Assembly: GCA_963843575.1 (NCBI GenBank)
Contig: CAWJKZ010000018.1
Span: 1-64,000 of the forward strand
DNA: 64,000 nucleotides
Direction: 5' to 3'
Source: an uncultured Acidobacteriota bacterium
Lineage (GTDB): Bacteria > Acidobacteriota > UBA6911
Shown: positions 28,557-53,727 of the stretch, piece after piece
Numbering within the stretch: position 1 is the first letter of the stretch
Layout: every line of letters starts with the position of its first letter
Program-made: the position numbers and the translations under genes
The notes under the pieces: generated by a model
Databases searched by the model: none
What the model saw: the letters and a program-made list of their open reading frames with translations, nothing else
Told to the model about the DNA's origin: nothing

Positions 28557-31500
28557 ATGTCGGTCTACGCCCAAACCCGCGTTAGTCCGCGTCAGCTTCC
28601 CGACCACCTGATCCGCGTGCTGCGCCGCCACGCCGACGAACGCCCGCGGCAACCGGCCTGCATCCATCTGCTCAACGGTCAGGCCGATCAAGCCAGTCTG
28701 ACTTACGCCCAGCTCGATCGGCGAGCCCGAGCCATCGCGGCTCGCTTGCAGGACATGGGCGTTGCCAGCCAGTGCGTGCTGCTGGTCTATCCGCCCGGCC
28801 TCGACTTCATTACGGCTTTCTTCGGCTGCCTGTACGCCGGTTGCGTAGCGGTGCCGACCTACCCGCCGCATCGCCACCGCATGCTCGATCGCTTCCAGGC
28901 CGTCGCCGCCGATGCCGGGGCCCGCATCGCCCTGAGCAATGCCTCGAGCGCGGTTCAGTTCCAGGCCATGATGGAAGCGGGGAAAAGCGGTCAAGCGGCC
29001 ACTTCCTCCCAGCTCTCGTGGCTCGCCACCGACGAGATTCCCGACGCCTTGGCCGAGCGTTGGCAAGAACCGGCCATCGCCCGCGACACGCTGGCCATGC
29101 TCCAGTACACTTCCGGCTCGACCAGCCGGCCCAAGGGCGTCATGCTCAGTCACGCGAACCTCATGGCCAACATCCGCGCCATCGATAAGGCTTTCGGCCT
29201 ACAGTACGAGGACAGCAGCGTGTTCTGGCTGCCCATGTACCATGACATGGGGCTGGTGGGCGGCGTTCTGGTCCCGGTGTTCAGCGGGGTGACAAACGTC
29301 TCCATCTCGCCGTCCACGTTCCTCCAGAGCCCCATCACTTGGCTGGCCGCCATCAGCAAGTGCCGGGCCACCATCTCCGGCGGGCCCAACTTCGCCTACG
29401 ATCTTTGTATTCGCAAGATCACCGACGAGCAGCGTGCCACCCTCGATCTTTCCTCCTGGGCCCTGGCCTTCGTCGGCGCCGAGCCCATTGAGCCCGGAAC
29501 GCTCGAACGCTTTGCCGCCGCGTTCGCCCCCTGCGGCTTCAAACCCGGCGCCTTTTATCCCTGCTACGGTTTGGCGGAGGCGACGCTCATGGTCAGCGGC
29601 CCGAGGCGCGACAGCGGCGCGACCGTCGGGACCTTCCGCGACACGGCGCTGACCGAAAACCGCGTTGAGCCCGTGCCCAACGATGCGCCGCAGGCTCGTC
29701 GCCTGGTGGCCTGCGGATCGCCCGTCGGCGGTCTACGCGTGGTGATCGTCGACCCGCACAGCCGCGCGGAGGCCGCCCCTGGCCGCGTGGGCGAAATCTG
29801 GCTTGCCGGCGCGTCGGTCGGTCAGGGCTACTGGAACAAGCCCGGCCAGACCCGGCGTTCCTTCGACGCCCGCCTGAGCGACACGGGCGAAGGCCCGTTC
29901 CTGCGGACCGGCGACCTGGGCTTCATGCGCGAAGGCCAACTCTACGTCACCGGCCGGCTGGACGACCTGATCATCGTCCGCGGCCTGAACCGCTATCCGC
30001 AGGATATCGAAGCCACCGCCCGCGGTAGCCACCCACTGCTGGAAACCGGCTACGGAGCTGCTTTCGTTGCGGACGATCACGGCAGCCAGCGCCTCGTTCT
30101 GGTGCAGGAGGTCGCGCGCAAAGGGAAGGTTAATTTCGCGCCCGTGCTGGATGCGGTTCGAGGGGCGGTGCTCGATGAACATGGCTTGGCCCTGGACGCG
30201 GTCGTGCTGGTGCGCAACGGTACGATTCCCAGGACCTCGAGCGGCAAGATCCAGCGCCATGCTTGTCGTGCTGCCTTCCTGGCCGGGAAGCTCAAGGCCC
30301 TCGCCGAACACCGCGGCTTGCCGGTCGACAATGCCGGCCCGAGAGCCGACACCCGCCCTGGTACCGAAGACGCGGGGTCTTCCACTGCGCGTCCCACCCC
30401 GCACTCTTGGCAAGCCGCTCTGGCCGCCGTCCGCCAGCACGCCTGCGCCTTGGCCGGCGCAGCCTTGCCCGACCTGACACCGAACATGCCCCTTGCCGCC
30501 TTGGGCCTGGATTCGCTGCAGCGCCTGGACCTAGTGGCCAGGCTGGAGAAGACCTTCGCCGGCCGCCTGCCCGACACGGTGTTCAGCCAGGCCCGGACGC
30601 TGGAGGATCTGGTCGAAGCCGTGCAGAAGCACCTGATCGATGTCCCCAGGCCCGATGTTCCCGCCGGCCAGATCCCGCCCGAACACTATGATTTGGCCCG
30701 CTTCCCCGAGTACGGCGAGTCGAAGCGTCAGGAACGCCAGCTGCTGGCGGTCGGCGACAACCCGTATTTCCGCGTCGACCAGGGCGGAGCTGGAAGCGCA
30801 CTCTGCATCGAGGGGCGCCGGCTCGTCGACTTCAGCATCTATGACTACGTCGGTCTGGCCCACGATCCGGAGGTCGCCGCCGCCGCCAAGGCCGCGATCG
30901 ACCGCTATGGCACCAGCGCCGGCGCCAGTCGCCTGGTCTCCGGCGAGAAAGAGGTGCATCGTGATCTGGAGCAGGCACTGGCCGCCTTCCTGGCCACCCC
31001 GGCCGCGATCGCCTTCGTCTCCGGCCATGCCACCAACGTCACAACCATCGGCCACCTGCTCGGGCCGGACGATCTGATCCTCCACGACATTCTGGCCCAC
31101 AACTCGATCGTCCAGGGCGCCATGCTTGCCGGCGCTACGCGCCGCGCCTTTGCCCATAACGATTGGCAGGCCCTCGACACCCTGTTGTCCGAGGTGCGCC
31201 ACCGCTATCGCCGCGTGCTGATCGCCATCGAGGGCGTGTACAGCATGGATGGCGACTTCCCCGAACTGCCACGCTTCCTGGAACTCAGGAAGAAGCACAA
31301 GACGCTGCTGCTGGTCGATGAGGCGCACTCACTCGGCACCATGGGGGCGACCGGCCGGGGCCTCGGCGAGCACTGGGGCGTGGCCCGCTGTGACGTCGAT
31401 CTGTGGATGGGCACGCTTTCCAAGTCGCTGGCCAGTTGCGGCGGGTTCATCGCCGGCTCGACCGAGCTCGTCGAGTACCTCAAGTACACCGCCCCCGGGT

Positions 31501-31919
31501 TTGTCTACAGCGTGGGAATCTCACCGCCCAACGCCGCCGCAGCGCTGGCCGCCCTGACGGTCCTTCAGCGCGAGCCGCAGCGCGTGGCCCGGCTGCGCGA
31601 GTTGGCGACATTGTTCCTGAAACTGACCAGGGAGCGCGGCCTGGACACTGGTTCGGCGGCCGGCACGCCCGTAGTTCCGGTCATCGTCGGAAGCTCGGTC
31701 AAGGCCTTGCGCTTGTCACGCGCCTTGTTCGACCGCGGCTTCAACGTCCAACCGATTCTGCCTCCGGCAGTGCCCGACCGCTCCGCCCGCCTCCGCTTCT
31801 TTATCACCACCAATCACAGCCAGGAACAGATCCGCGCCACGGTCCACGCCACGGCCGACGAACTGGTCAAACTGCAACGAAATGGATATGAGCCGCCGAT
31901 CCATGACGAACCGCGCTGA
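28557..31919 (+). CDS. Fused fatty acyl-AMP ligase - ACP - alpha-oxoamine synthase (serine palmitoyltransferase/AONS-like)
   Basis: FAAL motifs LQYTSGSTSRPKG, WLPMYHDMGL, CYGLAEATL, RTGDLG, PRTSSGKIQR. ACP LGLDSL. AOS motifs DYVGL, SGHATN, HNS, EGVYSMDGD, DEAHS, GTLSKS (PLP Lys). Alternative start 28473. Confidence 0.92.
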   Translation: MSVYAQTRVSPRQLPDHLIRVLRRHADERPRQPACIHLLNGQADQASLTYAQLDRRARAIAARLQDMGVASQCVLLVYPPGLDFITAFFGCLYAGCVAVPTYPPHRHRMLDRFQAVAADAGARIALSNASSAVQFQAMMEAGKSGQAATSSQLSWLATDEIPDALAERWQEPAIARDTLAMLQYTSGSTSRPKGVMLSHANLMANIRAIDKAFGLQYEDSSVFWLPMYHDMGLVGGVLVPVFSGVTNVSISPSTFLQSPITWLAAISKCRATISGGPNFAYDLCIRKITDEQRATLDLSSWALAFVGAEPIEPGTLERFAAAFAPCGFKPGAFYPCYGLAEATLMVSGPRRDSGATVGTFRDTALTENRVEPVPNDAPQARRLVACGSPVGGLRVVIVDPHSRAEAAPGRVGEIWLAGASVGQGYWNKPGQTRRSFDARLSDTGEGPFLRTGDLGFMREGQLYVTGRLDDLIIVRGLNRYPQDIEATARGSHPLLETGYGAAFVADDHGSQRLVLVQEVARKGKVNFAPVLDAVRGAVLDEHGLALDAVVLVRNGTIPRTSSGKIQRHACRAAFLAGKLKALAEHRGLPVDNAGPRADTRPGTEDAGSSTARPTPHSWQAALAAVRQHACALAGAALPDLTPNMPLAALGLDSLQRLDLVARLEKTFAGRLPDTVFSQARTLEDLVEAVQKHLIDVPRPDVPAGQIPPEHYDLARFPEYGESKRQERQLLAVGDNPYFRVDQGGAGSALCIEGRRLVDFSIYDYVGLAHDPEVAAAAKAAIDRYGTSAGASRLVSGEKEVHRDLEQALAAFLATPAAIAFVSGHATNVTTIGHLLGPDDLILHDILAHNSIVQGAMLAGATRRAFAHNDWQALDTLLSEVRHRYRRVLIAIEGVYSMDGDFPELPRFLELRKKHKTLLLVDEAHSLGTMGATGRGLGEHWGVARCDVDLWMGTLSKSLASCGGFIAGSTELVEYLKYTAPGFVYSVGISPPNAAAALAALTVLQREPQRVARLRELATLFLKLTRERGLDTGSAAGTPVVPVIVGSSVKALRLSRALFDRGFNVQPILPPAVPDRSARLRFFITTNHSQEQIRATVHATADELVKLQRNGYEPPIHDEPR

Positions 31920-32856
31920 ACACGTAATCGAAGTCGAGAAACTGACGAAGCGGTACGGGGATTTGCTGGCGGTTAACGACATATCGTTTAGCGTCAGGAA
32001 AGGCGAAGTTTTCGCCTTGCTGGGCCCGAACGGCGCCGGCAAGACCACTACTGTCGAGATAATCGAAACTATCCGCACGCCCACATCGGGGAAAGTGAGC
32101 CTTCTGGGGATGGACGTCACGAAGAAGAAGCACGACATCGTCCCCCGCATCGGCGTCCTCCCGCAGGGTTTCAGCTCGTTCGACAGGATAACGGTCAGGG
32201 AGACCATTCAGTACTACTCGCGGCTTTTCTGCTGCAAAGGCACCGATGTTGACAGGCTGATAGAGCTCGTCAACCTCAAGGACAAGACCAAAGAGCAATA
32301 CAAGAACCTCTCTGGGGGCTTGAAGCAGCGCCTCGGAATCGCGATTGCGCTCGTCAACGACCCCGAGGTCCTGTTCCTCGACGAGCCGTCGACAGGGCTC
32401 GACCCCCGCGCACGGCGCGAGGTGTGGGAAGTCCTGCTGGGCCTGAGACAGAAGGGGACGACGGTTTTTCTCACCACGCACTACATGGAAGAAGCGGAGC
32501 TTATTGCAGACACTGTCGCAATAATCTCGACGGGGAAGATCATTGCGATGGGCACTCCCGGGGAGCTCACCGTAAGCAACGCGAATTACCTGGTCCTCAC
32601 GCTACAGTCCGTCGATGAAAAAGTCTTTGAAATCGTCAAGAAAATGGGCTTCGAGCCCGTCCATGACGACCACAAAGACATCAAGGTCAGGGTGGAGTAC
32701 ACGGACGACATCCAGAAGATACTGAACGCCATCAAGGACGCCGGGGCGTTGTTCCTCAGCTTGGACGTTCGCAAGCCCAACCTCGAAGAGGTCTTCCTCA
32801 AGCTTACTGGCGACGCGCTCTGCGAGGGTCCTGCCGGGGGAAGGGGGGCGGAATGA
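31903..32856 (+). CDS. ABC-2 exporter ATP-binding subunit
   Basis: GPNGAGKTT, LSGG, LDEP, TTHYMEEA; overlaps the upstream stop codon. Confidence 0.93.
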   Translation: MTNRAEHVIEVEKLTKRYGDLLAVNDISFSVRKGEVFALLGPNGAGKTTTVEIIETIRTPTSGKVSLLGMDVTKKKHDIVPRIGVLPQGFSSFDRITVRETIQYYSRLFCCKGTDVDRLIELVNLKDKTKEQYKNLSGGLKQRLGIAIALVNDPEVLFLDEPSTGLDPRARREVWEVLLGLRQKGTTVFLTTHYMEEAELIADTVAIISTGKIIAMGTPGELTVSNANYLVLTLQSVDEKVFEIVKKMGFEPVHDDHKDIKVRVEYTDDIQKILNAIKDAGALFLSLDVRKPNLEEVFLKLTGDALCEGPAGGRGAE

Positions 32857-33968
32857 ACATGCGCGTCGTCGGTGCAAATCTCGTCGTGAGCGTCAAGAGT
32901 TTCTACCGCGAGAAGACCGCAATGTTCTTCACGATTGCGTTCCCGATACTCCTGATACTCGTGTTCGGCACCATTTTCATGGACCAGGAGAACGTGAGCT
33001 TCGACCTTCACGTGCAGGACCTCGATCACACCGAATTCTCGGCGCGGCTCATCGAGACCTTAAAGCTCAACGGGAAGTTCAAGATAATCAGAGTCGAACC
33101 CGCCATCAACGCCACGCAGTACGCCAAGGACAACAAGCTGAACCTTGTCCTCATTATTCCCGAAGGCTATGAAAGGTCCTTTGATCAGCGTATCGAAACC
33201 GACGACCCCAACACAACCGTTACCATAACGTACATATACGACCCCAGCTCTAGTTCGGTGCCCGCAAAGATGCAAATCCTGAACTCGGTCTTCGCCCGGT
33301 TAGACCAGCAGGTGTTCGGGAAGCCTCCGTTCATCAGGACGGTCGAGATATCGATACTCAACAAGAAGTACCGGTTCATCGAGTTCTTCATCCCCGGCGT
33401 CATCGCGATGGCGGTGATGACAGCGAGCCTGTTCGGTACGGTGAACTTGAACACGGAGCTGCGGCAGAAGGGCATCATCAGGAAGCTATCCACCACGCCC
33501 ATCACCCGCACCGAGTGGATACTGTCGAACATCCTGTACCAGTTCATACTCGCGGTCGTATCCACGATTGCGATGCTGCTGGCGGGCTATGCGGTGTTTA
33601 ACGTTAGCTTACAAATTAACGCCTGGCTCCCTTTATTCATTGTGCTTGATGTCATCGCGTTCGTCGGAATCGGGATGATACTCACCCGCTTCGTGAAGGA
33701 GGCACAGAGCGCTGCCGCCGCGGCAAACGCCATCATGTTCCCGATGATGTTCCTCTCGGGGAGCTTCTTTCCCATCGAGATGATGCCGGGCTTCCTGCAG
33801 ACGCTTGCCAGGATACTGCCTCTGTACTACGTGAACGAGGGGCTCCGGGCATCCATGGTATTTGTCGACAACATGACCGCGCTGCGATACTCCGCGATAA
33901 TAGGGATTTTTGCGGCCGTGGTCTTCATCCTGGGCATAATGGCCACCAAATGGGAAGAGGGCAAGTGA
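32853..33968 (+). CDS. ABC-2 exporter permease
   Basis: N-terminal TM, extracytoplasmic loop, FFIPG, FLSGSFFP, LPL; ATGA overlap with the ATPase gene. Confidence 0.92.
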   Translation: MNMRVVGANLVVSVKSFYREKTAMFFTIAFPILLILVFGTIFMDQENVSFDLHVQDLDHTEFSARLIETLKLNGKFKIIRVEPAINATQYAKDNKLNLVLIIPEGYERSFDQRIETDDPNTTVTITYIYDPSSSSVPAKMQILNSVFARLDQQVFGKPPFIRTVEISILNKKYRFIEFFIPGVIAMAVMTASLFGTVNLNTELRQKGIIRKLSTTPITRTEWILSNILYQFILAVVSTIAMLLAGYAVFNVSLQINAWLPLFIVLDVIAFVGIGMILTRFVKEAQSAAAAANAIMFPMMFLSGSFFPIEMMPGFLQTLARILPLYYVNEGLRASMVFVDNMTALRYSAIIGIFAAVVFILGIMATKWEEGK

Positions 33969-34007
33969 TAGCAAAATGAGGAGATTCATGACCCCGAACC
34001 GGAGCAC

Positions 34008-35231
34008 TCAAGAAGCGCCCTGGCTTGGCCAGCTTGGCCCAAGGTTGAAGGCCCGTGCTCCGCGAAAACTCGATTGACGCATGGCAAGCACCCGGCCTCT
34101 GCGCCCCACCCGGTAAGTGATTCCCCGCCACTGGATCTCGCGGCGAAGACCGGCCGCCCCAAGAGCTACACTGAAAACCAGCAAAAACACAGCCCCGGCG
34201 GCCAGCCACCGGACCGGCGGGCACGGCAACGGGTGCAAGAGCCGGATCTGTAGGAAGACCACCATCAGCACCGCAAGATAGAGAGCCGACACGATTGCGG
34301 ACAGTGCTGACGTCAGGCTCATCATAATTGCCACTACCAGCAATGCCGCGGAACAAAGAGCGAGGATCTGCAGGAGAAGACTCCACACGCCTAGCACAGC
34401 CCACATCCCCGGAAAAATAAAACGGACATATTGAAGCTGACGCACCAGCCACTCATACAAGTCGCGCAGATCCAATCCTGTCACCAAAGTCTCGCGGCAC
34501 ACCTGGGGCACCGTGCGCACCCTCACGCCATGCGCCCTGAGGACTCTCGCCAGCGATAAGTCGTCCACCACTGAGGTGCGCCACGTGTCTGCTACCTTCA
34601 GTCGCTCAAATGCCTCTCGCGAGATCGCCATGGCCCCCCCCCACGGCAGGCCGAGACCCGGCACGTTCTGGAAGACATACATAATTTCTACGCAGACAGC
34701 GTAGATCCAGCTCACGAATCCGCCATTTGCAGGCCTGGCAGCATGATAGCCGCTCGTCACCTCCGCTTCGCCGCGGGCAATCGGTGCAACCAAGCGCTCC
34801 AACCATCCGGCAGGAAATCCGTGGCCCGCGTCGGCAAAAACGAGTACAGCGTCACGACCTGAAACTGCAGCGATCCCGGCCAGCAGATTGTGGTTTTTCT
34901 GCCCGCACGCAGTCGCTGGACCTGCACAGACACACCTCGCCGATACTTTCCCCTGGATTGCCGCCTGGACCGTCTCGCTCGCCGGATCTTCGAGGTCCCG
35001 CAGCACAAAGACTGCCTCGAAGGAAGGATAGGTCTGGTTCAGTAGCGAGTGGATCGAGGCTTCAATCGGTCTGTTCACACCGGCGACCGGCATGATCACC
35101 GCCACGCGGCAGCTGGGAGCATCCGTGGACGGCACCGGAATGCCCGTGATGGCGTGTCTGGACATCCATATCAGGCCTGCCATTGATACGGCCCACGCCA
35201 GCATCAATCCGCACATGATCCACTCGATCAT
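34008..35231 (-). CDS. GT2/GT21 ceramide-glucosyltransferase (HpnI-like) glycosyltransferase
   Basis: N-terminal TM; CGQKNHNL, FADAG, WGGAMA, VVDDL, WLVRQ; C-terminal TMs and IQWRGITY. Confidence 0.8.
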   Translation of the reverse strand: MIEWIMCGLMLAWAVSMAGLIWMSRHAITGIPVPSTDAPSCRVAVIMPVAGVNRPIEASIHSLLNQTYPSFEAVFVLRDLEDPASETVQAAIQGKVSARCVCAGPATACGQKNHNLLAGIAAVSGRDAVLVFADAGHGFPAGWLERLVAPIARGEAEVTSGYHAARPANGGFVSWIYAVCVEIMYVFQNVPGLGLPWGGAMAISREAFERLKVADTWRTSVVDDLSLARVLRAHGVRVRTVPQVCRETLVTGLDLRDLYEWLVRQLQYVRFIFPGMWAVLGVWSLLLQILALCSAALLVVAIMMSLTSALSAIVSALYLAVLMVVFLQIRLLHPLPCPPVRWLAAGAVFLLVFSVALGAAGLRREIQWRGITYRVGRRGRVLAMRQSSFRGARAFNLGPSWPSQGAS

Positions 35232-35244
35232 CCCAGCCCCCGGC

Positions 35245-36456
35245 TCAATATCCCATCAGCCCACAACAGCGGGAACAGACCGGCATCAGTCCTTCCGTCG
35301 CGAGACTGCGTCGGAAGGCAACGCAGCGTTCGGAGTTCCACAGTTCCGACAGCGTGGCGGTCTTGACGTTGCCAACAACATAGTCGTGGTAGTCGCGGCA
35401 GGGTGATACATCGCCGTTGCTGTTGATCTCGACAACCTGGAAAATGGAAACACACTGGTCATATCCGAACCGCTCCCGATGGTTGGTGTAGTACGCCGTC
35501 AGTGCCCGCTCCCCGCGCAGGAACGGGATGAAGGTGACCGGAACAGCGCCCGGCTGGCGCGATCTCGCCAGCAAGGCCTCGATCTGGCTGGCGAGGGCGG
35601 CATGATTGTCGGCTTTCCACTGCCCAATCCAGCCGCGGTGGAGTGAGGGCGTGAACCCAAACCGCCGTGAGAAATCCTGATCATGGGCTGCCGCATCCGC
35701 CTCGTCGATCCACCAGGAAAGGTAGAAGACGAAAATATCCACGCGATCCCGAAATCCGTCGTAGATGTCGACGAGATGGGCGCAGTTCTCACGCGAGATC
35801 GTCGTCAGCGAAGCAATCAGCGGCAGGCCGGTTCGGCGCGCCCTCACCCTGTGCACTGCTGCCAGACCTGATTCGATCGCCCGGAAGTTGTCTCCCCGAC
35901 CGGCGGAAGGACGAAGGCGGTTGTGCAGATCGCCGGTGTGCCCATCAATGGAGATTTGCAGAAGGAACAGCGGGGCACGGACCAACAGTTCCGCAGCCGC
36001 CTCGATGCCTGTGCCGTTGGTGGCGATGGCCACCGGGAGATGCAGGCGCGACCCAGCTTCCACGAGGTCCAGGATCCCGCGGTAGAGCATCGGCTCGCCG
36101 CCCCAAAAGTACAGAATCGGCCGATGCCCGTGCTCTACCAGATTCTCAAATAGCTGTTGGTACCGCTCAGGAGACACCTCATCCTGTTTCAAAGCCTTGG
36201 GATCGCACTGGTGAAGGAACCCGCGCTCGCCCCACTGACCGCAGGTGCGGCACCGCAGGTTGCAGAGATCGGTAATGCGGATGCCCACCTGCCGGATGCG
36301 CCTGGCATGGCCCCTTGCGGAGCAGGGATACAGGGTGTCGAAAAACCACTTCTCTCCCTGCAAGACCGACATCTTGGCTAAAATCCGCGGATGTGCGGCC
36401 ACTCGCAGGAGGTTGGCCGTCAATACTCGTGAGCTAATCGCACTGCGCTGCACCAA
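35245..36456 (-). CDS. Radical SAM/SPASM protein
   Basis: CNLRCRTC, WGGEP, TNG, ISIDG; C-terminal C...GDVSPC...GN...CSRCC SPASM motif. Confidence 0.9.
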   Translation of the reverse strand: MVQRSAISSRVLTANLLRVAAHPRILAKMSVLQGEKWFFDTLYPCSARGHARRIRQVGIRITDLCNLRCRTCGQWGERGFLHQCDPKALKQDEVSPERYQQLFENLVEHGHRPILYFWGGEPMLYRGILDLVEAGSRLHLPVAIATNGTGIEAAAELLVRAPLFLLQISIDGHTGDLHNRLRPSAGRGDNFRAIESGLAAVHRVRARRTGLPLIASLTTISRENCAHLVDIYDGFRDRVDIFVFYLSWWIDEADAAAHDQDFSRRFGFTPSLHRGWIGQWKADNHAALASQIEALLARSRQPGAVPVTFIPFLRGERALTAYYTNHRERFGYDQCVSIFQVVEINSNGDVSPCRDYHDYVVGNVKTATLSELWNSERCVAFRRSLATEGLMPVCSRCCGLMGY

Positions 36457-36605
36457 CCCACCTCCGCAGGAATCTGTTCCGTGGCCTACGCTATCCGACC
36501 GAATCAGCCCGATTTTGTGTCCCCCCTCCCCATCTATGCTGCAAAAACCAGCCTATTCCGTACAAGCGACTTCATAACCGATTGCGACTGCGATGCCGAT
36601 TCCGA

Positions 36606-37877
36606 CTACGGCTTCCCCGAAGTCGCAGGCGGATGCTCTTCGGGTTTTGAGGCGTTTGCATCTCCGTTTTTAGGAACGGCCCGCACCCAATCGCCGAAGT
36701 TTATCAGCTCTTCCATCCGGCATGACCAGACGAGTCTGTCCTCCCACACGGTGATGTCCGGGCACCCGTCACACATGCTGAGAGCGCCGCTCTCGGTGAA
36801 GTCCGCCGGTTGGATGATCATGATCGATTGCATGTGGAGTTTCCTGAACAGCAATGCCGGTGAACGGGCGGCATCGTGCAGATAGGCAAGAGCGGTGCGG
36901 CTCAAGCCTTTGTCGAACGGGGCAAGCAACAGCATCGCCTTGCCCCTGCCGTGCACCTTCGGCTTCGTGTAGGCCAGATATGACCCGTTCAGCAGGTGAT
37001 GAAGCGTTTGGGAAAGCTCCATGAATTTCGGGCCCGTGTAGCCGAAGATCTTGTCCTTCGTCCCGATGCGCATGGTCAGCAGCCACTTGAAATGGTCCGG
37101 ACGCTCCGTGCCGTTGAGATACGCCGAAGGCTGGAAGTCCGGATAGCGCGAACGTATGGCCTCGACGACGTCCGTCGACATGGCGTAGATCTGCCGCTCT
37201 TCGTCGACGACGTAGGCGATTGGCGCCATGTCGATTGTTTTGCTTCCGACAAGGTAATCATAGCCTTTGCGCATGGAACCCGAGCGGTAAGCAATAAACA
37301 CGAGGACTTGGACGATATCGATGTGGTTCTGCCCCCAGGCCACGATCTCAGGGACATCCTTGAGTGTGTCCTCGTAGACGGTGGCATTGAAAGCACAGGA
37401 TATGTCGCCAACCTCGGCCAGCATGAGAGCATATTGCAGCCGCAGTTCATTTAACTCGATTTCGGTCTTCCCCTTCATGTGGGGGCGCTGCTGTTTGCTG
37501 TCGATGTGGAATGTAAATCCTGCAACGCCAGCCTTCTTAAGAGCGACGAGTTTCTCTTTTGACAGCCAAAGGCCGTTGGTGTTGATGATCGGTTTTTGGC
37601 CGTCGGCGGCGATCATCTCCACGATCTTCTCGATCTGAGGGTGCATCAGCGGGTCTCCCCCGGCAATAGAGACGCTATCCGCGTTGCGCAGGCGATTGAA
37701 TATGTCGAGTTCTTTCCGAACCTGTTCGAGCGACTTGTGCGCGTCCGGGTTGTTCTTGCGATAGCACCCCTGGCAGTAAAGGTTGCAGGCACTGGTCGGC
37801 TCTAACCAGCTGATGGCATTGTCAGGGAGGTTCCAGGGTAGGCGGTAGAGCCTGCGATGGTTCAATGGCGCTGGCAT
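36606..37877 (-). CDS. Radical SAM protein with C-terminal CxxC...C motif
   Basis: CNLYCQGC, AGGDPL, NTNG; C-terminal MCDGCPD...WSCR. Confidence 0.88.
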   Translation of the reverse strand: MPAPLNHRRLYRLPWNLPDNAISWLEPTSACNLYCQGCYRKNNPDAHKSLEQVRKELDIFNRLRNADSVSIAGGDPLMHPQIEKIVEMIAADGQKPIINTNGLWLSKEKLVALKKAGVAGFTFHIDSKQQRPHMKGKTEIELNELRLQYALMLAEVGDISCAFNATVYEDTLKDVPEIVAWGQNHIDIVQVLVFIAYRSGSMRKGYDYLVGSKTIDMAPIAYVVDEERQIYAMSTDVVEAIRSRYPDFQPSAYLNGTERPDHFKWLLTMRIGTKDKIFGYTGPKFMELSQTLHHLLNGSYLAYTKPKVHGRGKAMLLLAPFDKGLSRTALAYLHDAARSPALLFRKLHMQSIMIIQPADFTESGALSMCDGCPDITVWEDRLVWSCRMEELINFGDWVRAVPKNGDANASKPEEHPPATSGKP

Positions 37878-38375
37878 GAGATCATCCTTTCCGATCGTAC
37901 GAGCCCCAAAACCGGAAAACTTGCCGACGATAATACAACATCACGGACGGACTTCTTGAGTGCTATTGGCTCTTTCACAGAATGGCCGAGTGAAGTCGTT
38001 TTTGCGCTCAGGCCTGCTTCCTCGCAGGACGAGACGCCGCACATAACAGCTACTGCGATTGTGCGACTGGATCTTTGCGCAGGCGGCGGCGTAACAAGGC
38101 TGCAACCTGGGCTGGCGTTGACGCCGGAAAATCGGCCCGTCGGGCTCAACCGGGTTCTTCTCATTTCGCAGCAAGTGCGGGGGCGTGGGTCCGGATATCC
38201 GGGAGCGGCAGGCGGCGGGGGACGGGGTTATCCGGCAGGAAGGAGGGACAAGCATTCACGGCCCGGTTGAATCCGCCATTCCGGCGAAGCCGATCAACAA
38301 CCGCCAGGCCCGAGGGGGGGGCAGGGGACTTCCGGGTTTAAGGGCACCCTGCGCCATCGCATTGTCGCAAAGCCC

Positions 38376-45202: not shown

Positions 45203-45231
45203 ACGGCTGGCATTTCAGTGGAGGTCTGGGC

Positions 45232-48200
45232 ATGTTGGCTGAGGAGCAGGTTCCCATCATTGCTTTTGTCTGGAGACCTGGCGAGATAAGCCCGCCTGTG
45301 TCCGAAATGGCACAACGCACGGGCAGCCGGGCCATCTTCGATTTTTCCACGATGGGGGCGGAAGCACTGCATTCGTTCTTACAAACGGCTGACCCTGCTG
45401 GCCATGTCAGCGATATCAAGATTTCCGCCTCCGCCCTGATGAATCCATCCATCGGCCGGATCCTGAAGGAAACAGGTGCCCGGAATCTCTGGGTGGAATG
45501 CCAGTCCCAGTTCTTCCCGGGGGATCCTTCGGCCTTTCTACAGCGACTGCGGACCTTGTCGGAAGACTACCGCTGCTTTCCCATTGTCGGGGACGTGCCT
45601 CTCCTGGCCGCCATGGTCAAGGATGGTTCGGGCATCGGGCGCATCGTCCTCAAGGGCTGCGAGGCCGCTGGATTCGTGAGCGGCGAGACGACCTTGGTCC
45701 TCTATGCGGCGGCCAAGGAAATGTTGCGCGCCTCTGCGAAGTCTCTGGACGTCCTCATCTGGGGCGGCGTCTCCACCCCCGAGGCGGCCGCGGCCTTCCT
45801 GTCCACCGGAGCCGCCGGTATCGTCTTCGAGAGCGTCCACTGGCTGACTGATCTGGTGGTCATGGACGATCGCCAACGCCAGCAACTCGCCAGACTCCGC
45901 ATGGATTCCACTGCTCTGGTGGGCTTGGACCTGCAGGTTCCGTGTCGCCTTTTCAACAAAGGGAACTCGCTGGCCTTCAAGAAGATCCAGGCGTTCGAGG
46001 ACTCGCTGTGCGCCGCCGAGATCACGGACGAAAGCCGTCGTGCCTTCGTCGGCCAGGTGCAGGCCAGCGCCCTCCACCCCCTGGACAGCCATTTCACCCA
46101 GAGCGAGGTCATCCCTCTGGGCGTGGAGGCGGCCTTTGCCGCGTCGTTTGCCGAGCGTTTTGGCACCGGAACCGAGAAGGCCGTGAAAGCCTTCATGGCG
46201 GAGATGCGGAACTTGTGCGGCGCAGCCGAGGCGAAGAAGGATTGCTTCCTGGACAGCCCCGTAGCCCGGGAGATGGGCATCAAATACCCCTTTATCCAGG
46301 GTGCCATGTCCTCGATCACCGATATCCCGGAGTTTGCCTCCGAGATTGCTGATGCCGGCGGACTGCCCACCATCGCCCTCGGCCTGATGGATGCCCAGGC
46401 CCGTGACCGCAGGCTGGGACGCTTGCCGGAGATCATGGGCGGACGCCCGTATGCGGTGAATGTCGTCTCTCTGGCCGAGAACCCGTTCCGGGAAACGCAT
46501 CTGGCCTGGATAAAACAACACCGACCCCGTTTTGTCTGGATCGCCGGAGGAGATCTCTCCCCCATAAGAGAATTGCTGCAATGCGGCATTGGCGTCGTGT
46601 ATATCGCCCCTGATGAGGCCCTGTTGAAGCTCGCCCTGGAAGCGGGCGTCCGCTACGTGGTCTGCGAGGGCTACGAGGCCGGCGGCCACGTGGGGCAACA
46701 TAGCACGCTCACCCTGGCGCAAATGGTGCTGGACCTCAAACGTCGCCAGCCATCCCTGTTCCGGGACTGTCGGGTGATCCTGGCCGGGGGCATCTTCAAT
46801 CGGGAAACCGCCTTCATGGCCGGCCTGCTCGGCGCCGACGCCATCCAGATGGGCACGGCCTATCTGGCCACCCGGGAGATCGTTGAAACGGGCGCCCTGG
46901 CGGCCCTCTATCAGCGGATGATCGTGGAATCGCCGCCGGGGGGAACGGTCGTTTCGGGCCAAAGCACCGGACTTCGCGTGCGCTCCTTGAGGACCCCGAG
47001 AGTGGCCGCCGTCTTAGCTCTGGAACGGGAGTTTGCCGCGGGCCACCAGGACGAGCAGTCTTTCCGCAAGAAAATGGAGGAGATGACCGCCGGCAGCCTC
47101 TTCGTCGCGGCCCGAGGCGTGGACCGCCAAAGCGGGCGGCCGCTGGATGAGCAGGCGTGTCTGGAACGCGGGCAATTCATGAGCGGGTCCTGCGCCGGAC
47201 TGATCGGTAAAGTCCAGAAGCTGGAGTCCTTTCACCGCGAGTTGGCCGAAGGCCCGCTCTTGCTCCATCAGCCCTTTGCGACGTCGACCGCAAAAACCTC
47301 GGCACCTTCACCCGACGCGCCGCTACCCGCGGAAATCCCCACTCCCGTGGTTGGCCGGGGACCGAAGGGCGTCGCCCGCCTGAGAGACGATCGCGACCGG
47401 GTGGCCATCAGCGGGATGAGCGTCCTCAATGCCCTCGGGAAGAGCCCGGAAGAGGTCTGGGCGGCAAGCCTGGCCATGAAGAGCGGCGTTACCTTGGTGC
47501 CGTCTTCCCGGTGGAATCACGACCGCTTTTATGATCCGCGGCCGCGCGTCACGGACAAGACCTACTGCCAGGTGGGCGCCTTTGTGGACTTTCATGTCTC
47601 ACGCAATGAACTGGGGATTCCCCCACAGGATTTCCGGACCATGACCTCGGCCACCAGGATCACCATGTGGCTGGCGCAAAGGGCCATTCGGGCCTCCGGC
47701 ATCCTGGAGTCAGGTATCCCGCGCGAGCGCATCGCGGTCCTCATCTCCCAGAACTCCGGAGAGGCGGCGGGCACCCTCACCGGTATGATCATCAGGGAGT
47801 ACGTGCACGAAATCCTCTCCGCCATCAAGCGGGCCGTTCCCCTCACCCCGGATCAGGAGAGCGCCATCGAACGGGAGGTGAAGTCCGGACGCATGGCCCC
47901 GGACGACACCACGCTTCTGGGCCGACTCAACTGCACCGCCGCCGGCTTCATCTGCAACCGCTATGGCTTCATGGGGCCCAGCTATTCGGTCTCCGCCGCC
48001 TGCGCCACCTCCCTGGTCGCGCTCTACAGCGCCCTGCAGATGATCCGCAACGGCATCATCGACGCCGCCATCGTCGGCGGAGGCGAGGATGATCTCACGC
48101 ATCTGCATTTCCTGGAATTCTCCGCCCTGGGCGCGCTTTACGGGTTGTCGGGACGGCCGCGGCCGCCTCACGAAACCTCTCGCCCCTTCGATGCTGAAAG

Positions 48201-51200
48201 AGACGGGATGGTCCTCGGCGAAGGCGGGGGCATGATCGTCATCGAGCGCGAGAGCCTGGCCCGCGACAGAGGGGCCCCGGTCCATGCGGTCATCACCGGC
48301 ATGGGCGCAAGCAACAACCATCTGGGCATGGTCGAGTCCTCCAGCGTCACCCAGGAAATCGCCATCCGCGCTTCTTTCCGCGGAATGCCCTATGGGCCCG
48401 ACGCCGTGGACCTGGTGGAATGCCATGCCACAAGTACTCGCCAAGGGGACGTGGAGGAGGTCCGTGCCCTGAAGACATTCTTCAATTCCTCCAAGCGCAC
48501 AGTGCTCACGTCATTCAAATCCCAGATCGGACACACACTGGGCGCCTCTGGCATTAACAACCTCATTCGAGGAGTCATGGCCATGAAGGCGGGGGTTTTC
48601 CCCCCCACCCTCAACTACACGCACCCTGATCCGGAAATCGACTCGAACGGATCGGGTCTCCTCATCGCCCCAGAGCCGCTCGATTGGAAGTGCGAGACCG
48701 GCCGGCCAAGAAGGTTTCAGGTCAACGCCTTCGGGTTTGGAGGTTCCAACTACGTGGTTCAGGTGGAGCAGGCCCTGGATGGTGAGGATACGATTCTGGT
48801 CTCCACGGGCAGAGAGGCGCGTCTCGCCGCGGAGACGGCCGATGACCCTGCCGTGCTCCAGGGCGTCTCTTTCTTCCGGACCGAGATGGCCGGCCGCACC
48901 TGCCGGATGGCCGTTGTCGCACCATCTGCCGAAGAGGCCCTCACGGTCATCGAGCGCTCCGCCTCCCTGGCCGAAGCCGCGGTCGCCTCACCCAAGGCGG
49001 CGCGTTCCCTGGCGCAGCAGGGCCTCTTCATCAGCCCCGAGGATCCGCCCGTGCCGCCGCTCGCTCTGGTCTTTCCCGGACAGGGGGCCCACTATGCCGG
49101 CATGGGCCAGGCGCTCTACGAGTCCTTTCCCGTCATCAAGGAGTGGATGGATCGGGCGGCCGCCGCCGCCACGGACTTCGACCTTCTGCAATTGTTATTC
49201 CATGATCGAGAGGAGAACCTGCAGAAGACCCGCTGGCAGCAACCGGCCCTGTTCGCCCTGGAGCACGCCATGGCTCGATACCTCATCACTCTTGGTATCC
49301 ACCCTGTGGCTATGGCCGGCCACAGTTTGGGCGAACTGACCGCCCTATGCCTGGCCGGTGTCTATTCCCTGGAGGACGGGTTTCGAATCGTGAACAAGAG
49401 GGCCCTCTGCATGGACAAGGCCGCTGCTATGCACGTGGACCCCGGCGTCATGGAGGCCACGGACGCCCCTCTGGATCTGCTGAAAGAGATGATCCGGGGA
49501 CGGAAGGATGTCCACATTGGCAATATCAATTCACCGAACCAGGTCGTCCTGAGTGGCGACACCGAGGCGGTCAAAAATCTTGGTAACAGACTGAAGGAGA
49601 AGGGATACCGGTCCACCCTCCTGCGGGTCAGCATGGCCTTCCACTCTCCTATCATGAGGCTTATCCATGATGAGCTCGAGGCGTACGTTGCCTCCATCCC
49701 ATTTCATTCCCCGCAGATCCCCGTCATCTCCAACACAACCATGGCACCGTACCCATCAGATCCCGGTGAGATCAGGCGCATCCTGATGGCCCACCTGGAA
49801 TCTACCGTCCATTGGATGAATAATGTCCAGACTCTCTGGAATGACTACGGCATCCGGCTCTTCGTGGAGGTGGGTCCCGGCGACATATTGAGCAATCTCA
49901 TCGCCGACACGCTCCCTGAACCGCTGTGCCTCCAGACCTGCCTGCCCACCGCGGAGAGCCACACGTACCGGACCGCCCTGGCGCAGCTCTTCGTTCACGG
50001 ACATCTACAGGTTCGGGAAGAACCGCGGTTCGTCTCCCTCCCGGCATCCCGGAAGGCTCCCGCGTCTCACCGCCACGCCCCAGCCGGAGAACAGTCCTCC
50101 CCGCCCCCTTGATCGCCCCCCGACCACCCCGGACGGACAGGCCGCCCCGGCCCTTGCCGAAGCGCCTGAGCGTCAGGACCACCTGGAGGCGATTATTCGC
50201 ATCATCATGGATGCCACCGGATTCGACCGGGACGAAATCCAACCCGATATGGATCTCAGAAGAAACCTCTCCATCCGCTCCAGCCGTCTGCCGATCATCA
50301 TGGATGCCGCGGAACGCCAGTTCGGGATCACTATCGAATTGGAGGACTTTATCCATGTCCGCACCGTAAGAGACATCGCCCAGCGGATCTCCGCGATCGT
50401 CGCCCGGCAGGAAGGCGCCGGCGAGCGGCCCGCCGCCAAGGCGGCTGACCCCGGCGCGGCGCCGGCCGGAATCCCTGAGCCGTCAGCGGATGAGGCGCTT
50501 CTGAAGCGGCTCGTTTTCAACCTCGCCCCTGTGGAGCCGGCAGCTTCCATGCCCGTGGAATTGAGCCCCGGCGAGGCCGTCCTCCTCCTCTCGCCGGACC
50601 AGGATGACGCACTGGCCAAGAGTGCGGGAGACCTGCTCCGCCAGGATTACGGTGTTGACACTTTTCCCCTGCCATTCATGCCAGAGCACTTGGGGCCGGG
50701 CGAAGAGGGCCACGACATTCTGAATGCCGCGGGAGTCGCCAGGACCTCAGAGAAAATCTCGGGCCTCGCCTCCCTCGCGGGGCTGGTCATCACCTTGCCT
50801 CAAGACGGGTCGGAACGGTTGGCCGGCATGGCGGATGTTTCGCGGCTGCTCACCGGGCTCTTTCAACTCCTGAAGGCTTTTCTCCAATCACCATCCAGGA
50901 AATTCGTCGTCCTGATTCATGCCCGCGAGGATACCGACACTCTCGGTCGGCTGCTGACGGAGGGGCTGCTCGGACTGTTTCTGAGCGCCGCCCAGGAACA
51001 CCCCGCGGTCCAGTTTCGCACGCTGGAAATCGACCGGGACACCGACCTGCCCCTGGCCCTGCGCGCCGCTCTGGACAAGGGCTGCGCCGCGGTGGAACTC
51101 ATTCATCGCGAAGGCAAGGTCTTCACCTCGCAGGGACACCTGGCCCCCGCGGTCTTCGGCGATCCGCCAAGTCTGAAGTTGAACCCCGGAGACGTTGTAG

Positions 51201-52936
51201 TCATGTCTGGAGGCGCCACGGGGATCAGCGCCCACCTGGCCCGCAGTTTGGTGCCCTTCGCGCCTCGCCTGGTCTTTCTTGGCAGGACCCAGCTGGAACC
51301 GCACCCCGAGCCTTCGTCTTCTGCATCTGCCCCTGACAAATCCCGAGCCCGCGAGATCGCCCAGACCCTGGCGGATTTGCACGCCTCAGGAATCGAGGCC
51401 ACGTACCTGACCTGCGATGTAACCGACCCCGAGGCGGTTCGTGTTGCCCTGGGCGAGGTGGCCGGCCGCTATGGCCGGATCGACGGCATCATTCACGGCG
51501 CCGGCGTCCTCCGGGACGGTTTCCTCGACCAAATGACCCCTGAGGATTTTTCCCTCGTCGCGGACGTCAAATTCCTGGGAGCCTGGAATCTATTCTCGGC
51601 GGCAGAGGGGGCGGGCTTGAGGTTCTTCGTGGGCCTTTCCTCGGTGGCGGCCATCCAGGGAAATCCCGGCCAGACCAACTACGCTGCCGCCAACCGCATG
51701 ATGTCGGCGCTACTCCGATACCTCCGCCGCAGGAACGGCGCCATCCGCTTCAAGGCGTTGATGCTGCCCCCGGTCGAGGGGACGGGCATGGCCGAGAACC
51801 CGGAGGTCCGGGACTTGCTCAGACGCCGAGGCGTGGCCTACGTCCACGTCCATGAGCTTGCCGGCCTGTTCTGCCGGGAACTCTTCGTCGCCCCGGCCGA
51901 CGACGATTGGGTCATGTTCATCAGGACCCTGCCCTCCGTGAAGACGGCACCGCTCGGTGATATCAGCCACCCCGCGCTCAGTGGACAACTGGATGGCGGC
52001 CCCGTGGCCTTCAGCCCTCGCGACTTCCCCATGATCGATGGCATCTCTTGCCTGGACCTCCGCCGGGAACACTTGGAGGCCTCCAGGTCCTTCTCCAGGC
52101 AGAACGATCTGTGGATCGCGGATCACCGGCCACTCAAGTCCCTCGCCCATCCTCTGGTTTCCGCCGCCATGATGCTCGAGACCTTCATGGAATCCGCCCG
52201 CATCCTCTATCCCCACCTCCAGGTGCGGGGCGTGCGCCAGGTGCGTTTCATGGACATGATCTCCTGTCCTCCTGAGGTTCCCCGGTCTTCCAGAATCTCC
52301 TGCCGCCGAGCCGGCGTCGACCCTCGTGAGGTAGTATGCGAGGCCTCTCTATCCGTACAAGAGATCTCCCCCACGGGCCGGCTGGCCGACCGCTTCATCC
52401 CACACTGCACGGGCCAGGTGCTCCTCGGCGGCGGGCGTGGAGAACTCGCCGAGTGGTTCCAGGATTTTCCTGTCCGTCCGGATGAGCTGCGGACTCCGCC
52501 CGTGAATCATGAAAAAGTGCTCAAATGGTACGAAGAACGAACCGGACTCAACGGCAGATATCGCGTGCTGGAGGTCATTGACGGTGCCGGTCCGGGGCTG
52601 ATACGGGGCCGAACCATTTACCGGGAGACCGGTGATTTCGCGCATCTGCACGCCGCGCGCTACCAATACTCTCCCTACCTGTTCGAGGCCCTGATGCAGT
52701 TGGCCGCCTTCCACATGCTGGCCATAGACCCACACGATCGCCGCTCGATGCTCCCCACAGAGATCGGCGAGATGCGGTTTCTGCGCCAATGCCGGCCGGG
52801 CGAACAGATAACCCTGGAGGCCCGCCTGCGGGTTCAGGACCACGAATCTCTCGCCTGGGACGCCCGGGGACTTGACGATCAAGGCCTCACTATAATGCAG
52901 ATTCGTACGATGCGCATGCACTGGGTTTCGCCGTGA
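45232..52936 (+). CDS. Iterative type I PKS/FAS (PfaA/PfaD-like): ER-like, ER(FabK), KS, AT, ACP, KR, DH; frameshift at ~50100
   Basis: LKGCEAAG; PFIQGAM, EGYEAGGH, AGGI, QMGTAY; KS ACATS/ECHATS/GHTLG; AT GHSLGE/AFHS; ACP-like DLRRNLSIRSS; KR SGGATGI/HGAG/YAAAN; DH IADHRP/FEALMQ. The frame upstream of Met 50207 is open and ACP-like. Confidence 0.9.
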
Positions 52937-53727
52937 CGCGGCTCGAACAAATGGGGGCAGCCGTGGCACAGGATCGCCAGGAAGTCATCGTTCAGTCCGT
53001 GCGTCTCGTTCCTTGCGGGTGCGTTGTCTTCTATGCCTCCGTGCCAGGGAACTCCGCAAGCTCCAGCGGATCCGCGACCATTCGGACGGAAAACCGTCGT
53101 CGGCTCGTCGCCATCCTCTGGGAGCACCTTCGGGCGAAGGGAAGTCCTCTCTGGAAACGCCCCCATTTCTCCAACAGAGTCGCAGTCCCGATTCAGATAG
53201 TCCACGATACGCTGGGTCGGCCTCGTCTCCTGTTGGGAGAACAGCGGGGCCCGGCCATCTCCTTCAGCACGGCGGGCGAAGAAGTCTGGGCCGCCCTCTG
53301 TGACGACGACTCGACTATCGGCATCGATGTGGCCGGAAGCGCCGAATTCCAGGATGGTTACCCCGTGCACCGGGTCTTCCACGTTCAGGAGCTTCACCAG
53401 GCATTGGAGATGGCGGGCGGAGACTTGGCCAAGGCCGCGGCGCTGCTCTGGTCTATCAAGGAAGCCGTCGCCAAGGCCCTTGGGTGCGGCTTTCATCTTG
53501 TGGATCCGCGGGACATCCATGTCTATCCATCGGCAGCAGAGGATAGCGGGCCTGCCTTTTCCGCACGCTTATCAGGGAAAGCTTTGGTGCGTTTCCCCAT
53601 GGCCGACCGCCGGCCTATCACGGTGTGTTCGCTGCCCCACGCCGAGACGTGGCTTTCCGTCGCCGCCTTGAATTGGCCGCGGCCGTCTGTCGCCAATAGT
53701 CCATCGCTCCGGTCTTCGTGCCCTTGA
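52933..53727 (+). CDS. 4'-phosphopantetheinyl transferase (Sfp-like)
   Basis: GRP, ISFS, IGIDV, LWSIKEAVAKALG; GTGA overlap with the PKS stop. Confidence 0.88.
   Translation: MTRLEQMGAAVAQDRQEVIVQSVRLVPCGCVVFYASVPGNSASSSGSATIRTENRRRLVAILWEHLRAKGSPLWKRPHFSNRVAVPIQIVHDTLGRPRLLLGEQRGPAISFSTAGEEVWAALCDDDSTIGIDVAGSAEFQDGYPVHRVFHVQELHQALEMAGGDLAKAAALLWSIKEAVAKALGCGFHLVDPRDIHVYPSAAEDSGPAFSARLSGKALVRFPMADRRPITVCSLPHAETWLSVAALNWPRPSVANSPSLRSSCP

Follow-up and report, generated by a model that had tools for sequence, protein, structure and literature searches.

The DNA analysed here (the window) comprises 64,000 nucleotides of contig CAWJKZ010000018.1 (positions 1 to 64,000, forward strand; assembly GCA_963843575.1) from an uncultured Acidobacteriota bacterium of the UBA6911 lineage, and carries at roughly 28.45-53.73 kb a gene cluster which, judging from its encoded proteins, probably makes an unusual exported sphingolipid. 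It is considered moderately likely that the cluster constitutes a self-contained pathway for a ceramide-type (N-acyl long-chain-base) lipid. In this pathway a fusion of fatty acyl-AMP ligase (FAAL), acyl carrier protein (ACP) and α-oxoamine synthase (AOS) would form the base, a polyketide synthase (PKS) of the iterative type I kind would build the N-acyl chain and an N-acyltransferase (GNAT) would join the two. A first-pass annotation had described a PKS-linked glycosphingolipid cluster of about 25 kb at this position. Its gene inventory was borne out by open reading frame (ORF) listing and Pfam scans, which found each gene where it had been placed, and the limits it drew also hold, as the flanks encode unrelated carbohydrate and other metabolic genes. 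The ceramide interpretation itself is supported in part. The homologues of the core enzymes and their co-conservation sustain it, the position of the AOS next to enzymes like serine palmitoyltransferase (Spt) has a tree support of only 52/0, and the accessory genes are not co-conserved.

The steps of the proposed pathway, all taken from homology and gene order, begin with the FAAL, which would adenylate a free fatty acid and load it onto the ACP of the same chain, this ACP being primed by the 4′-phosphopantetheinyl transferase (PPTase) of the cluster. In the fused AOS the acyl-ACP would be condensed with an amino acid, of which L-serine is the most likely, and a 3-keto long-chain base would result; delivery in cis is proposed because of the fusion and the AasR-AcpR-Spt precedent. 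A single iterative megasynthase of ~2,590 residues, malonyl-specific and without a thioesterase, is predicted to build a second, straight acyl chain on its own ACP by means of enoyl reductase (ER), ketosynthase (KS), acyltransferase (AT), ketoreductase (KR) and dehydratase (DH) domains in the order ER-KS-AT-ACP-KR-DH. An acyltransferase of the bCerS/YghO family, encoded directly upstream, would take this chain off the ACP and N-acylate the base. A CerR-like short-chain dehydrogenase/reductase (SDR) would reduce the 3-keto group and an ABC-2 transporter would flip or export the lipid. In this genome there is also an inserted block with a GT21-family glycosyltransferase (GT2), a GT4 glycosyltransferase, a PIG-L deacetylase and two radical SAM enzymes. 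Its probable role is modification of the head group, with GT4 and PIG-L suggesting a step from N-acetylglucosamine (GlcNAc) to glucosamine.

The FAAL-ACP-AOS tri-domain protein (28466-31919, plus strand; in-frame ORF 28473-31919) has 1,140 residues with Pfam matches to AMP-binding (1e-70), PP-binding (4.7e-13) and Aminotran_1_2 (3.6e-43). The start of 28557 given by the first-pass annotation had to be revised, the real start lying ~90-100 bases further upstream. In E. coli the corresponding genes are named aasR, epi, acpR, spt and aca, with yghO (ECD_02850) as the counterpart of Caulobacter CC_1154, and the SPT of E. coli BL21 makes 3-oxo-sphinganine from acyl-AcpR, according to the available sections of the publication (PMC9386255). 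BLASTP aligns the FAAL with E. coli AasR (34%, E 9e-74) and the AOS with E. coli Spt, an enzyme that has been assayed (35%, E 2e-60), and because of these matches the tri-domain protein is assigned, on homology, as a one-chain counterpart of AasR-AcpR-Spt. A FAAL-type ligase and an ACP with a DSL motif thus precede the synthase, as AasR and AcpR relate to Spt. The fused ACP gave no significant BLASTP match to AcpR, and all matches to the FAAL subfamily and AOS models of NCBIfam lie under their cut-offs. Proteins with this fusion are common in metagenomes, with 3,854 clusters at E <= 1e-20 among 8,000 candidates scored. Nearly all of the best 120 homologues have the same four Pfam domains (three shorter ones are without AMP-binding), and these carry generic names only.

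The AOS domain keeps its catalytic residues in alignment with E. coli Spt and others, namely the lysine of GTLSKS, the histidine of AHNS and the D..H pair of VDEAHS. These are the catalytic Lys, His and Asp of an AOS-fold pyridoxal phosphate-dependent enzyme such as Spt, condensation of serine itself being a prediction. An N-terminal PYFR motif is common to the AOS of the window and the Spt-like sequences, and the best PDB sequence matches are to Spt (240 bits), followed by LCB2 (216) and Kbl/BioF (206). With the NCBIfam Spt equivalogs the scores are under cut-off (310 vs 640, 274 vs 500 and 205 vs 670), and so are those with bioF (349.9 vs 426.45) and Kbl (280 vs 460). A maximum likelihood tree of 30 rows, from which six duplicate loci had been removed beforehand, comprised the AOS of the window, six fused orthologues, two ACP-AOS proteins of relatives, E. 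coli Spt (the only assayed Spt in the tree), three AOS syntenic with bCerS and SDR genes, six stand-alone AOS from PKS-linked loci, five certified Kbl, one certified BioF and five unlabelled paralogues. The fused lineage forms a group of 9 rows (100/100) outside both the Kbl clade (100/98) and the BioF pair. The genome has just one other AOS homologue, which is Kbl-like. It is also worth mentioning that two genomes of the same family have loci (L011, G020:C87:7765-13490; L015/L016, G022:C287) in which an SDR is accompanied by a stand-alone FAAL, by a fused ACP-AOS and by a bCerS-like gene in divergent orientation, with no PKS match in the contig DNA examined. The AOS proteins of these loci are sister to the fully fused clade (100/100), and their arrangement looks like an intermediate stage of the FAAL-ACP-AOS fusion.

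The GNAT gene (44035-45187, plus strand; in-frame ORF 44035-45111) was identified through homology and tree placement. The label given by the first-pass annotation holds in that the protein is present, but its 358-residue ORF matched no Pfam or NCBIfam model, and it was only homology to YghO and bCerS that identified it. A PF13480 search of the same genome matched two other genes on contig C19 and not the GNAT of the cluster. By BLASTP it is 32% identical to E. coli YghO over 323 residues (E 3e-54) and 40% identical to a Streptomyces GNAT flanked by AOS and SDR genes (E 2e-78). A tblastn search of plasmid records with an intact ortholog (P0018) returned 46 records, including E. coli yghO (33% over 94% of the query). 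Among 8,000 candidates scored, 2,018 relatives were found at E <= 0.001, the best 120 of which are 76-96% identical and 373-402 residues long. The 19 PKS-linked GNATs sampled for a 39-row tree come together without exception in a single tight clade (SH-aLRT 100), which lies inside the YghO/bCerS family. Two bCerS-like genes of relatives with 42-43% identity (L133, G023:C19:43928-45046; L134, G017:C128:94746-95855) are sister to this clade (SH-aLRT 99). With its full-length homology to CC_1154/YghO the GNAT belongs to this family of bacterial ceramide synthases, as had been supposed, N-acylation being its predicted activity.

The neighbourhoods of YghO-like genes elsewhere are similar in content. 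The annotated E. coli locus has a FAAL, an epimerase-type SDR, an ACP, a PLP aminotransferase-fold enzyme (AOS/Spt), a divergent yghO and adjoining LptF/LptG paralogues, while YghO-like genes adjoin AOS and SDR genes in records of Streptomyces, Aureispira, Rubrobacter and Roseomonas.

The megasynthase (45232-52936, plus strand; Pfam and NCBIfam) consists of an ER-like domain, an ER domain of the NMO/FabK type, KS, AT, ACP, KR and DH. In the window it appears as two ORFs recognised by Pfam, PKS1 (ER(NMO)-KS-AT, 45232-50112) and PKS2 (ACP-KR-DH, 50207-52936), both on the plus strand, which are probably one protein of ~2,590 residues split near 50099 by a frameshift. The gene is a single 2592-residue ORF in the intact orthologous locus L021 and is continuous in 42 of the 49 related loci that could be judged. 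The KS has its cysteine in AACATS, and the AT has GHSLG and MAFH motifs (malonyl-type). No thioesterase domain was detected in the PKS with Pfam or NCBIfam. As the bCerS homologue is the constant partner of the PKS and a thioesterase is missing, release by N-acyl transfer to the long-chain base is the simplest route. The gene for the PPTase (52933-53727, plus strand; Pfam ACPS 1.7e-11) follows.

There is some likeness between this megasynthase and PfaA-type enzymes, which are polyunsaturated fatty acid (PUFA) synthases with related "secondary lipid" synthases. The KS-AT...KR...DH order and the FabK/PfaD-type enoyl reductase are shared, and the PfaA model aligns over KS-AT and KR. PUFA synthases carry tandem ACPs; the PKS of the window differs in having one weak ACP, an ER fused at its N-terminus and no detected chain-length factor or FabA-type DH. 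Its score with the PfaA model (TIGR02813) is 336.6 bits against a cut-off of 1010.1, with a single PP-binding match, which places it outside the PfaA type.

The extended SDR (42762-43797, minus strand, spread over three frames; Pfam Epimerase 7.6e-31) is 44% identical to a Streptomyces SDR adjoining AOS and GNAT genes (E 7e-37, BLASTP). It is homologous to CC_1164/ECD_02852 and co-located with Spt and bCerS counterparts, and is likely to be a CerR/Epi ortholog, although the similarity is low. The earlier suggestion of a CerR-type epimerase-like reductase is supported by its match to E. coli Epi/CerR (28%, E 8e-16, BLASTP). The putative exporter comprises an ABC transporter ATPase of the DrrA/NodI type (31882-32856, plus strand; Pfam ABC_tran 1.5e-31; NCBIfam drrA 267.8 bits, under cut-off) and an ABC-2 permease (32853-33968, plus strand; Pfam ABC2_membrane_3 7.3e-36 and NCBIfam).

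A scan of species-representative genomes gave 210 GNAT relatives, from which 80 loci were kept and searched by tblastn with the proteins of the window. The GNATs of these loci show 71-94% amino-acid identity, and the loci are labelled Deferrimicrobiaceae, Terriglobia, Bryobacterales, Verrucomicrobiota, Planctomycetes, Nitrospirota, Aminicenantes and, in many cases, Desulfobacterota, although labels of metagenome-assembled genomes (MAGs) may err. PKS1 follows the GNAT in 76 of the 80, the remaining four having <=1,845 bases downstream. Where at least 9 kb of downstream sequence is present (43 loci), PKS1 and PKS2 are found in all 43, the PPTase in 41 and an ABC ATPase match beyond the PPTase in 23. 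With at least 9 kb upstream (50 loci), the SDR is found in 21 and an AOS domain in 10. The fused FAAL-ACP-AOS occurs in seven loci (78-92% identity), and in 2 of 5 further genomes checked an AOS homologue lies on the same contig just past the flank. What stays constant elsewhere is the set of GNAT, megasynthase and PPTase. An ABC exporter often comes next, and SDR and AOS are frequent neighbours. Around one third of the related loci (L028-L034, L036, L039-L041, L052, L056, L059, L072, L075 and others) have ~1-1.6 kb between GNAT and PKS1, which is room for one extra gene that is not in the window.

No member of the PKS-linked GNAT clade was found among 40 relatives of the source genome (best match 43%), and the same-genus genome G001 (81% complete) had no match. 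An ordinary bCerS-like gene is present in 13 of the 40, beside an Spt-like AOS in at least 8 of those 13; these tallies include one genome (G034) without a GNAT match. The high identity to MAGs of other phyla, together with the absence from close kin, suggests that the cluster may have been gained horizontally.

Between the exporter and the SDR lies a block of accessory genes. These are a GT2 of the Glyco_transf_21 family (34008-35231, minus strand), a radical SAM/SPASM enzyme (35245-36456, minus strand; Pfam, with NCBIfam matches far under cut-off), a second radical SAM enzyme without a SPASM domain, rSAM2 (36606-37877, minus strand; Pfam), a PIG-L family de-N-acetylase (38946-39950, plus strand; Pfam PIG-L 7.7e-15), a GT4 (39944-41191, plus strand; Pfam Glycos_transf_1 1.9e-40, best models BshA/MshA-like and all under cut-off) and an orphan TRAP-type solute-binding protein, DctP (41435-42493, minus strand; Pfam DctP 2.2e-45, NCBIfam TRAP_S1 283.7 bits). 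DctP has a signal-peptide-like N-terminus, and no DctQ or DctM was present among the cluster ORFs scanned. The GT2 and the radical SAM/SPASM enzyme are specific to the window. Neither was found in the 80 related loci, the latter at E<=1e-10, with one 27% match (E 9.9e-7) in L074 at a laxer threshold. Close relatives of rSAM2 (95%), PIG-L (89%) and GT4 (92%) recur in L065 only, which also has a DctP-like gene (42% identity) in another position. A search for rSAM2 in five further genomes with the fused AOS, made without a positive control, gave no match. The sugar and radical SAM genes are a local add-on. Co-conservation, which the first-pass annotation had named as a check on its reading, applies to the core across many phyla and not to the accessory genes, and the "glyco" part is weaker than had been claimed, the genes being in the cluster but not travelling with it through the 80 loci.

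The GT2 scores 42.5 bits with PF13506 (gathering cut-off 21.7), which places it in the GT21 family of ceramide glucosyltransferases, with ceramide as a candidate acceptor only. Its PDB sequence matches are to ceramide glucosyltransferase only (E 0.0023), and it has 138 homologues at E <= 1e-5, with PF13506 in all 120 of those listed. The best models for GT4 and PIG-L are BshA/BshB-like and under cut-off (BshA 101.2 vs 273.7, BshB1 29.3 vs 182.5). The pairs BshA/BshB, MshA/MshB, PIG-A/PIG-L and HpnI/HpnK carry out GlcNAc transfer followed by deacetylation. The GT4 and PIG-L genes of the window are likewise adjacent, the probable start of GT4 overlapping the stop of PIG-L, but unlike the Bsh and Hpn pairs these enzymes reach no curated equivalog cut-off. 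PDB sequence searches with the radical SAM enzymes gave weak generic matches only, those of the SPASM enzyme being to BlsE and SkfB, and a protein atlas search with rSAM2 returned only unnamed radical SAM clusters. Two other assignments were tried for the sugar genes and rejected. With a hopanoid HpnI/HpnK/HpnJ set, the Hpn scores are far under the equivalog cut-offs (HpnI 78.7 vs 310, HpnH 53.2 vs 225, HpnA 74.4 vs 367.65) and neither radical SAM enzyme has the architecture of HpnJ. With a Nod-factor-like set (GT2, deacetylase, N-acyltransferase, special ACP and NodIJ-like exporter), the core of GNAT, PKS and exporter occurs elsewhere without GT2 or PIG-L.

Just upstream of PIG-L, the 172 bases of 38364-38535 (no strand) duplicate the 5′ end of the SDR gene and the divergent intergenic region between SDR and GNAT. 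One direct repeat of 95 nt (D1) is 88% identical with 43703-43797 and another of 88 nt (D2) is 80% identical with 43943-44030, and tblastn finds a fragment of the SDR N-terminus at 38361-38456. On these alignments the duplication looks like a scar left when the accessory block was inserted, and it may give PIG-L and GT4 the same promoter as the GNAT-PKS operon, a hint of co-regulation. The PIG-L start of 38529 in the first-pass annotation had to be revised; the most likely start is the Met at 38946, which is residue 140 of the ORF, and the alignment with the L065 ortholog begins at residue 139. Between the copy of the promoter region and this probable start, in non-coding DNA, there is an inverted repeat (38664-38697/38878-38911) with 34-nt arms, 88% complementary and 180 nt apart. 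A promoter and terminator scan of 37800-39000 gave nothing above shuffles.

Mapping of the proteins of L021, which comes from a MAG, onto the window located five frame changes in four genes. These are at ~28530 (FAAL, whose first ~25 residues are in another frame), two within 43185-42940 (SDR), at ~45056 (GNAT, whose in-frame ORF is without its last ~40 residues) and at ~50099 (PKS). Contigs from three public DNA runs and one RNA-library run were placed on 33801-53800, a stretch which leaves the FAAL site outside. One base is missing in these public contigs at 43183 (159.7/159.7 depth in run X1, 15.4/15.4 in X3), at 43027 (9.6/9.6 in X3, 0/11 in X1), at 42940 (11.5/11.5 in X3, 76/76 in X4) and, in all four runs, at 45056. 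At 50099 the frame-breaking extra base is missing in the X3 contig (14.7/14.7 depth). At least three of the sites lie in short base runs, the Kbl-like gene elsewhere in the genome (G000:C10:7622-8798) is likewise split, and apart from the shifts identity to intact orthologues is 89-93%, with no stops. The frameshifts are probably assembly errors. Indel errors in the assembly would account for the pattern, and they may lower the 88% completeness estimate of the genome as well. Contigs at least 99% alike to 33801-53800 occur in wetland and soil metagenomes of several studies (for example 519 of 3,005 records in X1). In the soil RNA-library run X15, contigs lie over 25 of 30 bins; as DNA carry-over is a possible source, they do not prove transcription. 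Contig cover in the four runs was almost nil over GT2 and the radical SAM/SPASM gene (bins of 34468-36468), to which no evidential weight is attached.

A number of these observations weigh against the pathway as proposed and lend themselves to other explanations. All NCBIfam scores of the AOS being under cut-off, the bioF model (349.9 bits) still outscores the best Spt model (310). The fused AOS clade sits on a long branch (1.07) and is sister to the Spt-like clade (13 rows, 99/94) at only 52/0, so that the comparison with Spt, BioF and Kbl called for by the first-pass annotation places the AOS outside the Kbl and BioF clades, with Spt as a candidate assignment. Forcing the fused AOS to group with Kbl was 6.66 log-likelihood units worse in the approximately unbiased (AU) test (p-AU 0.048), a borderline result. 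It might therefore be argued that the same enzymes are at work with an AOS using alanine, glycine or another amino acid, giving a 1-deoxy-type or other N-acyl amino-ketone or amino-alcohol lipid. The separate position of the clade and the bioF score are in keeping with this, as is the loop PPAVP, which lies between the PPA(A/T)P of Spt-like sequences and the (F/P)P(T/V)VP of Kbl and BioF in a region that presumably bears on substrate choice. The best PDB matches are to Spt, however, the neighbours are of the bCerS family and CerR-like as in known ceramide loci, and the Kbl grouping is disfavoured, so this variant is considered unlikely. The identity of the SDR to the E. coli Epi/CerR counterpart is low, as given above, the ACP of the megasynthase matches Pfam weakly (E 6.7e-5) with an atypical serine motif, and the destination of the PKS chain is taken from gene order and the missing thioesterase. 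PfSgaAB moreover has the opposite wiring, with an iterative PKS feeding an AOS with SPT activity, as its published description in the accessible text has it (PMC12134224). A megasynthase acting in this manner would supply the precursor of the long-chain base, either released and re-activated by the FAAL or passed directly to the AOS, and the GNAT would use ordinary acyl-CoA or acyl-ACP, the bCerS of Caulobacter being described as an acyl-CoA transferase in the sections available (PMC9386255). This appears quite improbable for the window, where the fusion gives the AOS a FAAL and an ACP of its own in line with the AasR-AcpR-Spt hand-over, no thioesterase is there to free an acid for the FAAL, and the constant neighbour of the PKS is the GNAT (76/80 loci) as against an upstream AOS in 10/50.

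With regard to the accessory block, its genes are not co-conserved, and therefore it is their position that ties them to the lipid. The block (GT2, both radical SAM enzymes, PIG-L, GT4 and DctP) could be an insertion that has nothing to do with the lipid and serves, for instance, a glycan or low-molecular-weight glycoside; the product would then be a plain ceramide-type lipid instead of a glycosphingolipid. Such an insertion is a real possibility, if one that falls short of even, and is compatible with the ceramide-type pathway. It accords with GT2 and the radical SAM/SPASM gene being found in 0/80 loci and rSAM2 and PIG-L in 1/80, with rSAM2 not being found in the five other fused-AOS genomes (the search without a positive control), with the arrangement of L025, which is without the block, and with the best GT4 and PIG-L models being BshA/BshB-like, all under cut-off. 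The place of the block inside the cluster speaks for a link with the lipid, as do the occurrence of part of it at the same place in L065, the copy of the promoter region of the cluster itself ahead of PIG-L and the membership of GT2 in the GT21 family with PDB matches only to ceramide glucosyltransferase. Also unfavourable to the ceramide-type pathway is that four of the cluster genes are frameshifted in the window as given. If these shifts in FAAL, SDR, GNAT and PKS were real, the cluster would be decaying and this strain would make no product, and five frame changes in four genes within 25 kb, together with the absence of the deletion at 50099 in run X1 (0/6.18 depth), are what this would predict. 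Decay is nevertheless the least probable of the explanations. Public short-read contigs have exactly one base fewer at 43183, 43027, 42940, 45056 and 50099, at least three sites are in short base runs, a gene on contig C10 of the same genome is also split, and the coding sequence beyond the shifts is stop-free and 89-93% identical to intact orthologues.

The ceramide-type pathway proposed for the window can be compared with the pathway by which Caulobacter crescentus and E. coli B make dihydroceramide (AasR, AcpR, Spt, CerS/bCerS and CerR/Epi), for all five functions of which, as set out in the accessible parts of the publications, it has counterparts (PMC9386255, PMC11087976, PMC11324152). 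Common to both are a FAAL-type ligase, a dedicated ACP and an AOS in series, an acyltransferase of the YghO family and an extended SDR. Each also has neighbouring genes for a lipid transporter, but of a different type, namely LptF/G paralogues in E. coli and Roseomonas and an ABC-2 pair in the window. Unlike in E. coli and Caulobacter, AasR, AcpR and Spt form one chain of 1,140 residues in the window with an AOS of a distinct lineage, and the bCerS homologue falls into a clade of its own, which is very conserved and has megasynthase and PPTase as its constant partners. The PfSgaAB(C) cluster of Pseudomonas fluorescens MYb115 resembles the window in uniting an iterative type I PKS with sphingolipid-type chemistry. 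In that system the PKS hands its chain to an AOS with SPT activity, which leads to long-chain sphinganines, with no gene of the bCerS family described in the accessible text (PMC12134224). In the window, by comparison with the published description and not by sequence, the PKS is tied to the N-acyltransferase, whereas the AOS comes with a FAAL and an ACP in the same chain. The earlier remark that no cluster of this composition has been characterised stands in the literature searched, although a PKS-dependent sphingolipid route, PfSgaAB, has been published, as the available part of that paper describes (PMC12134224). Neither a bCerS-megasynthase cluster nor the fused enzyme was found described in the literature searched, the scope of which left out subscription papers and supplements, and members of the clade may already be listed in the supplements of PMC11334938 and PMC9386255.

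Upstream of the cluster, at 17097-24529, there are genes for sugar acids and glycosides which are apparently unrelated to it, encoding an SMP-30 lactonase, a GH88, an SDR, an enolase-superfamily protein, a DUF4432 protein and a melibiase-like glycoside hydrolase. An Rfam scan of the whole window gave no family at its gathering score.

Bacterial sphingolipids have long been considered rare. New in the window are the context of the fused AOS, the accessory block of sugar and radical SAM genes, the copy of the promoter region and the frameshift evidence. On a wider view, which is put forward tentatively and must be regarded as rather doubtful, the PKS-linked bCerS clade would represent a so far undescribed class of bacterial sphingolipid. 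In this class a private megasynthase would pass the N-acyl chain directly from its ACP to the ceramide synthase, and the genes would have spread by gene transfer through many phyla of wetland, soil and sediment bacteria, with a glucosamine-type head group reworked by radical SAM enzymes in the present case. If true, the lipid would be new among glycosphingolipids, and environmental sphingolipids that are so far unexplained would have a candidate source. Metagenomic work predicts bacterial sphingolipids in dozens of phyla, as stated in the portion of the paper available (PMC11334938). To these the present type of cluster adds a highly conserved ceramide-synthase clade with its own megasynthase and exporter, a single-chain AasR-AcpR-Spt and a local head-group module. 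It permits a test of whether a ceramide synthase takes its acyl chain straight from a PKS carrier protein, and it offers a defined, clonable set of genes for tracing which organisms of anoxic soils and wetlands make sphingolipid-like lipids and what structures these have.

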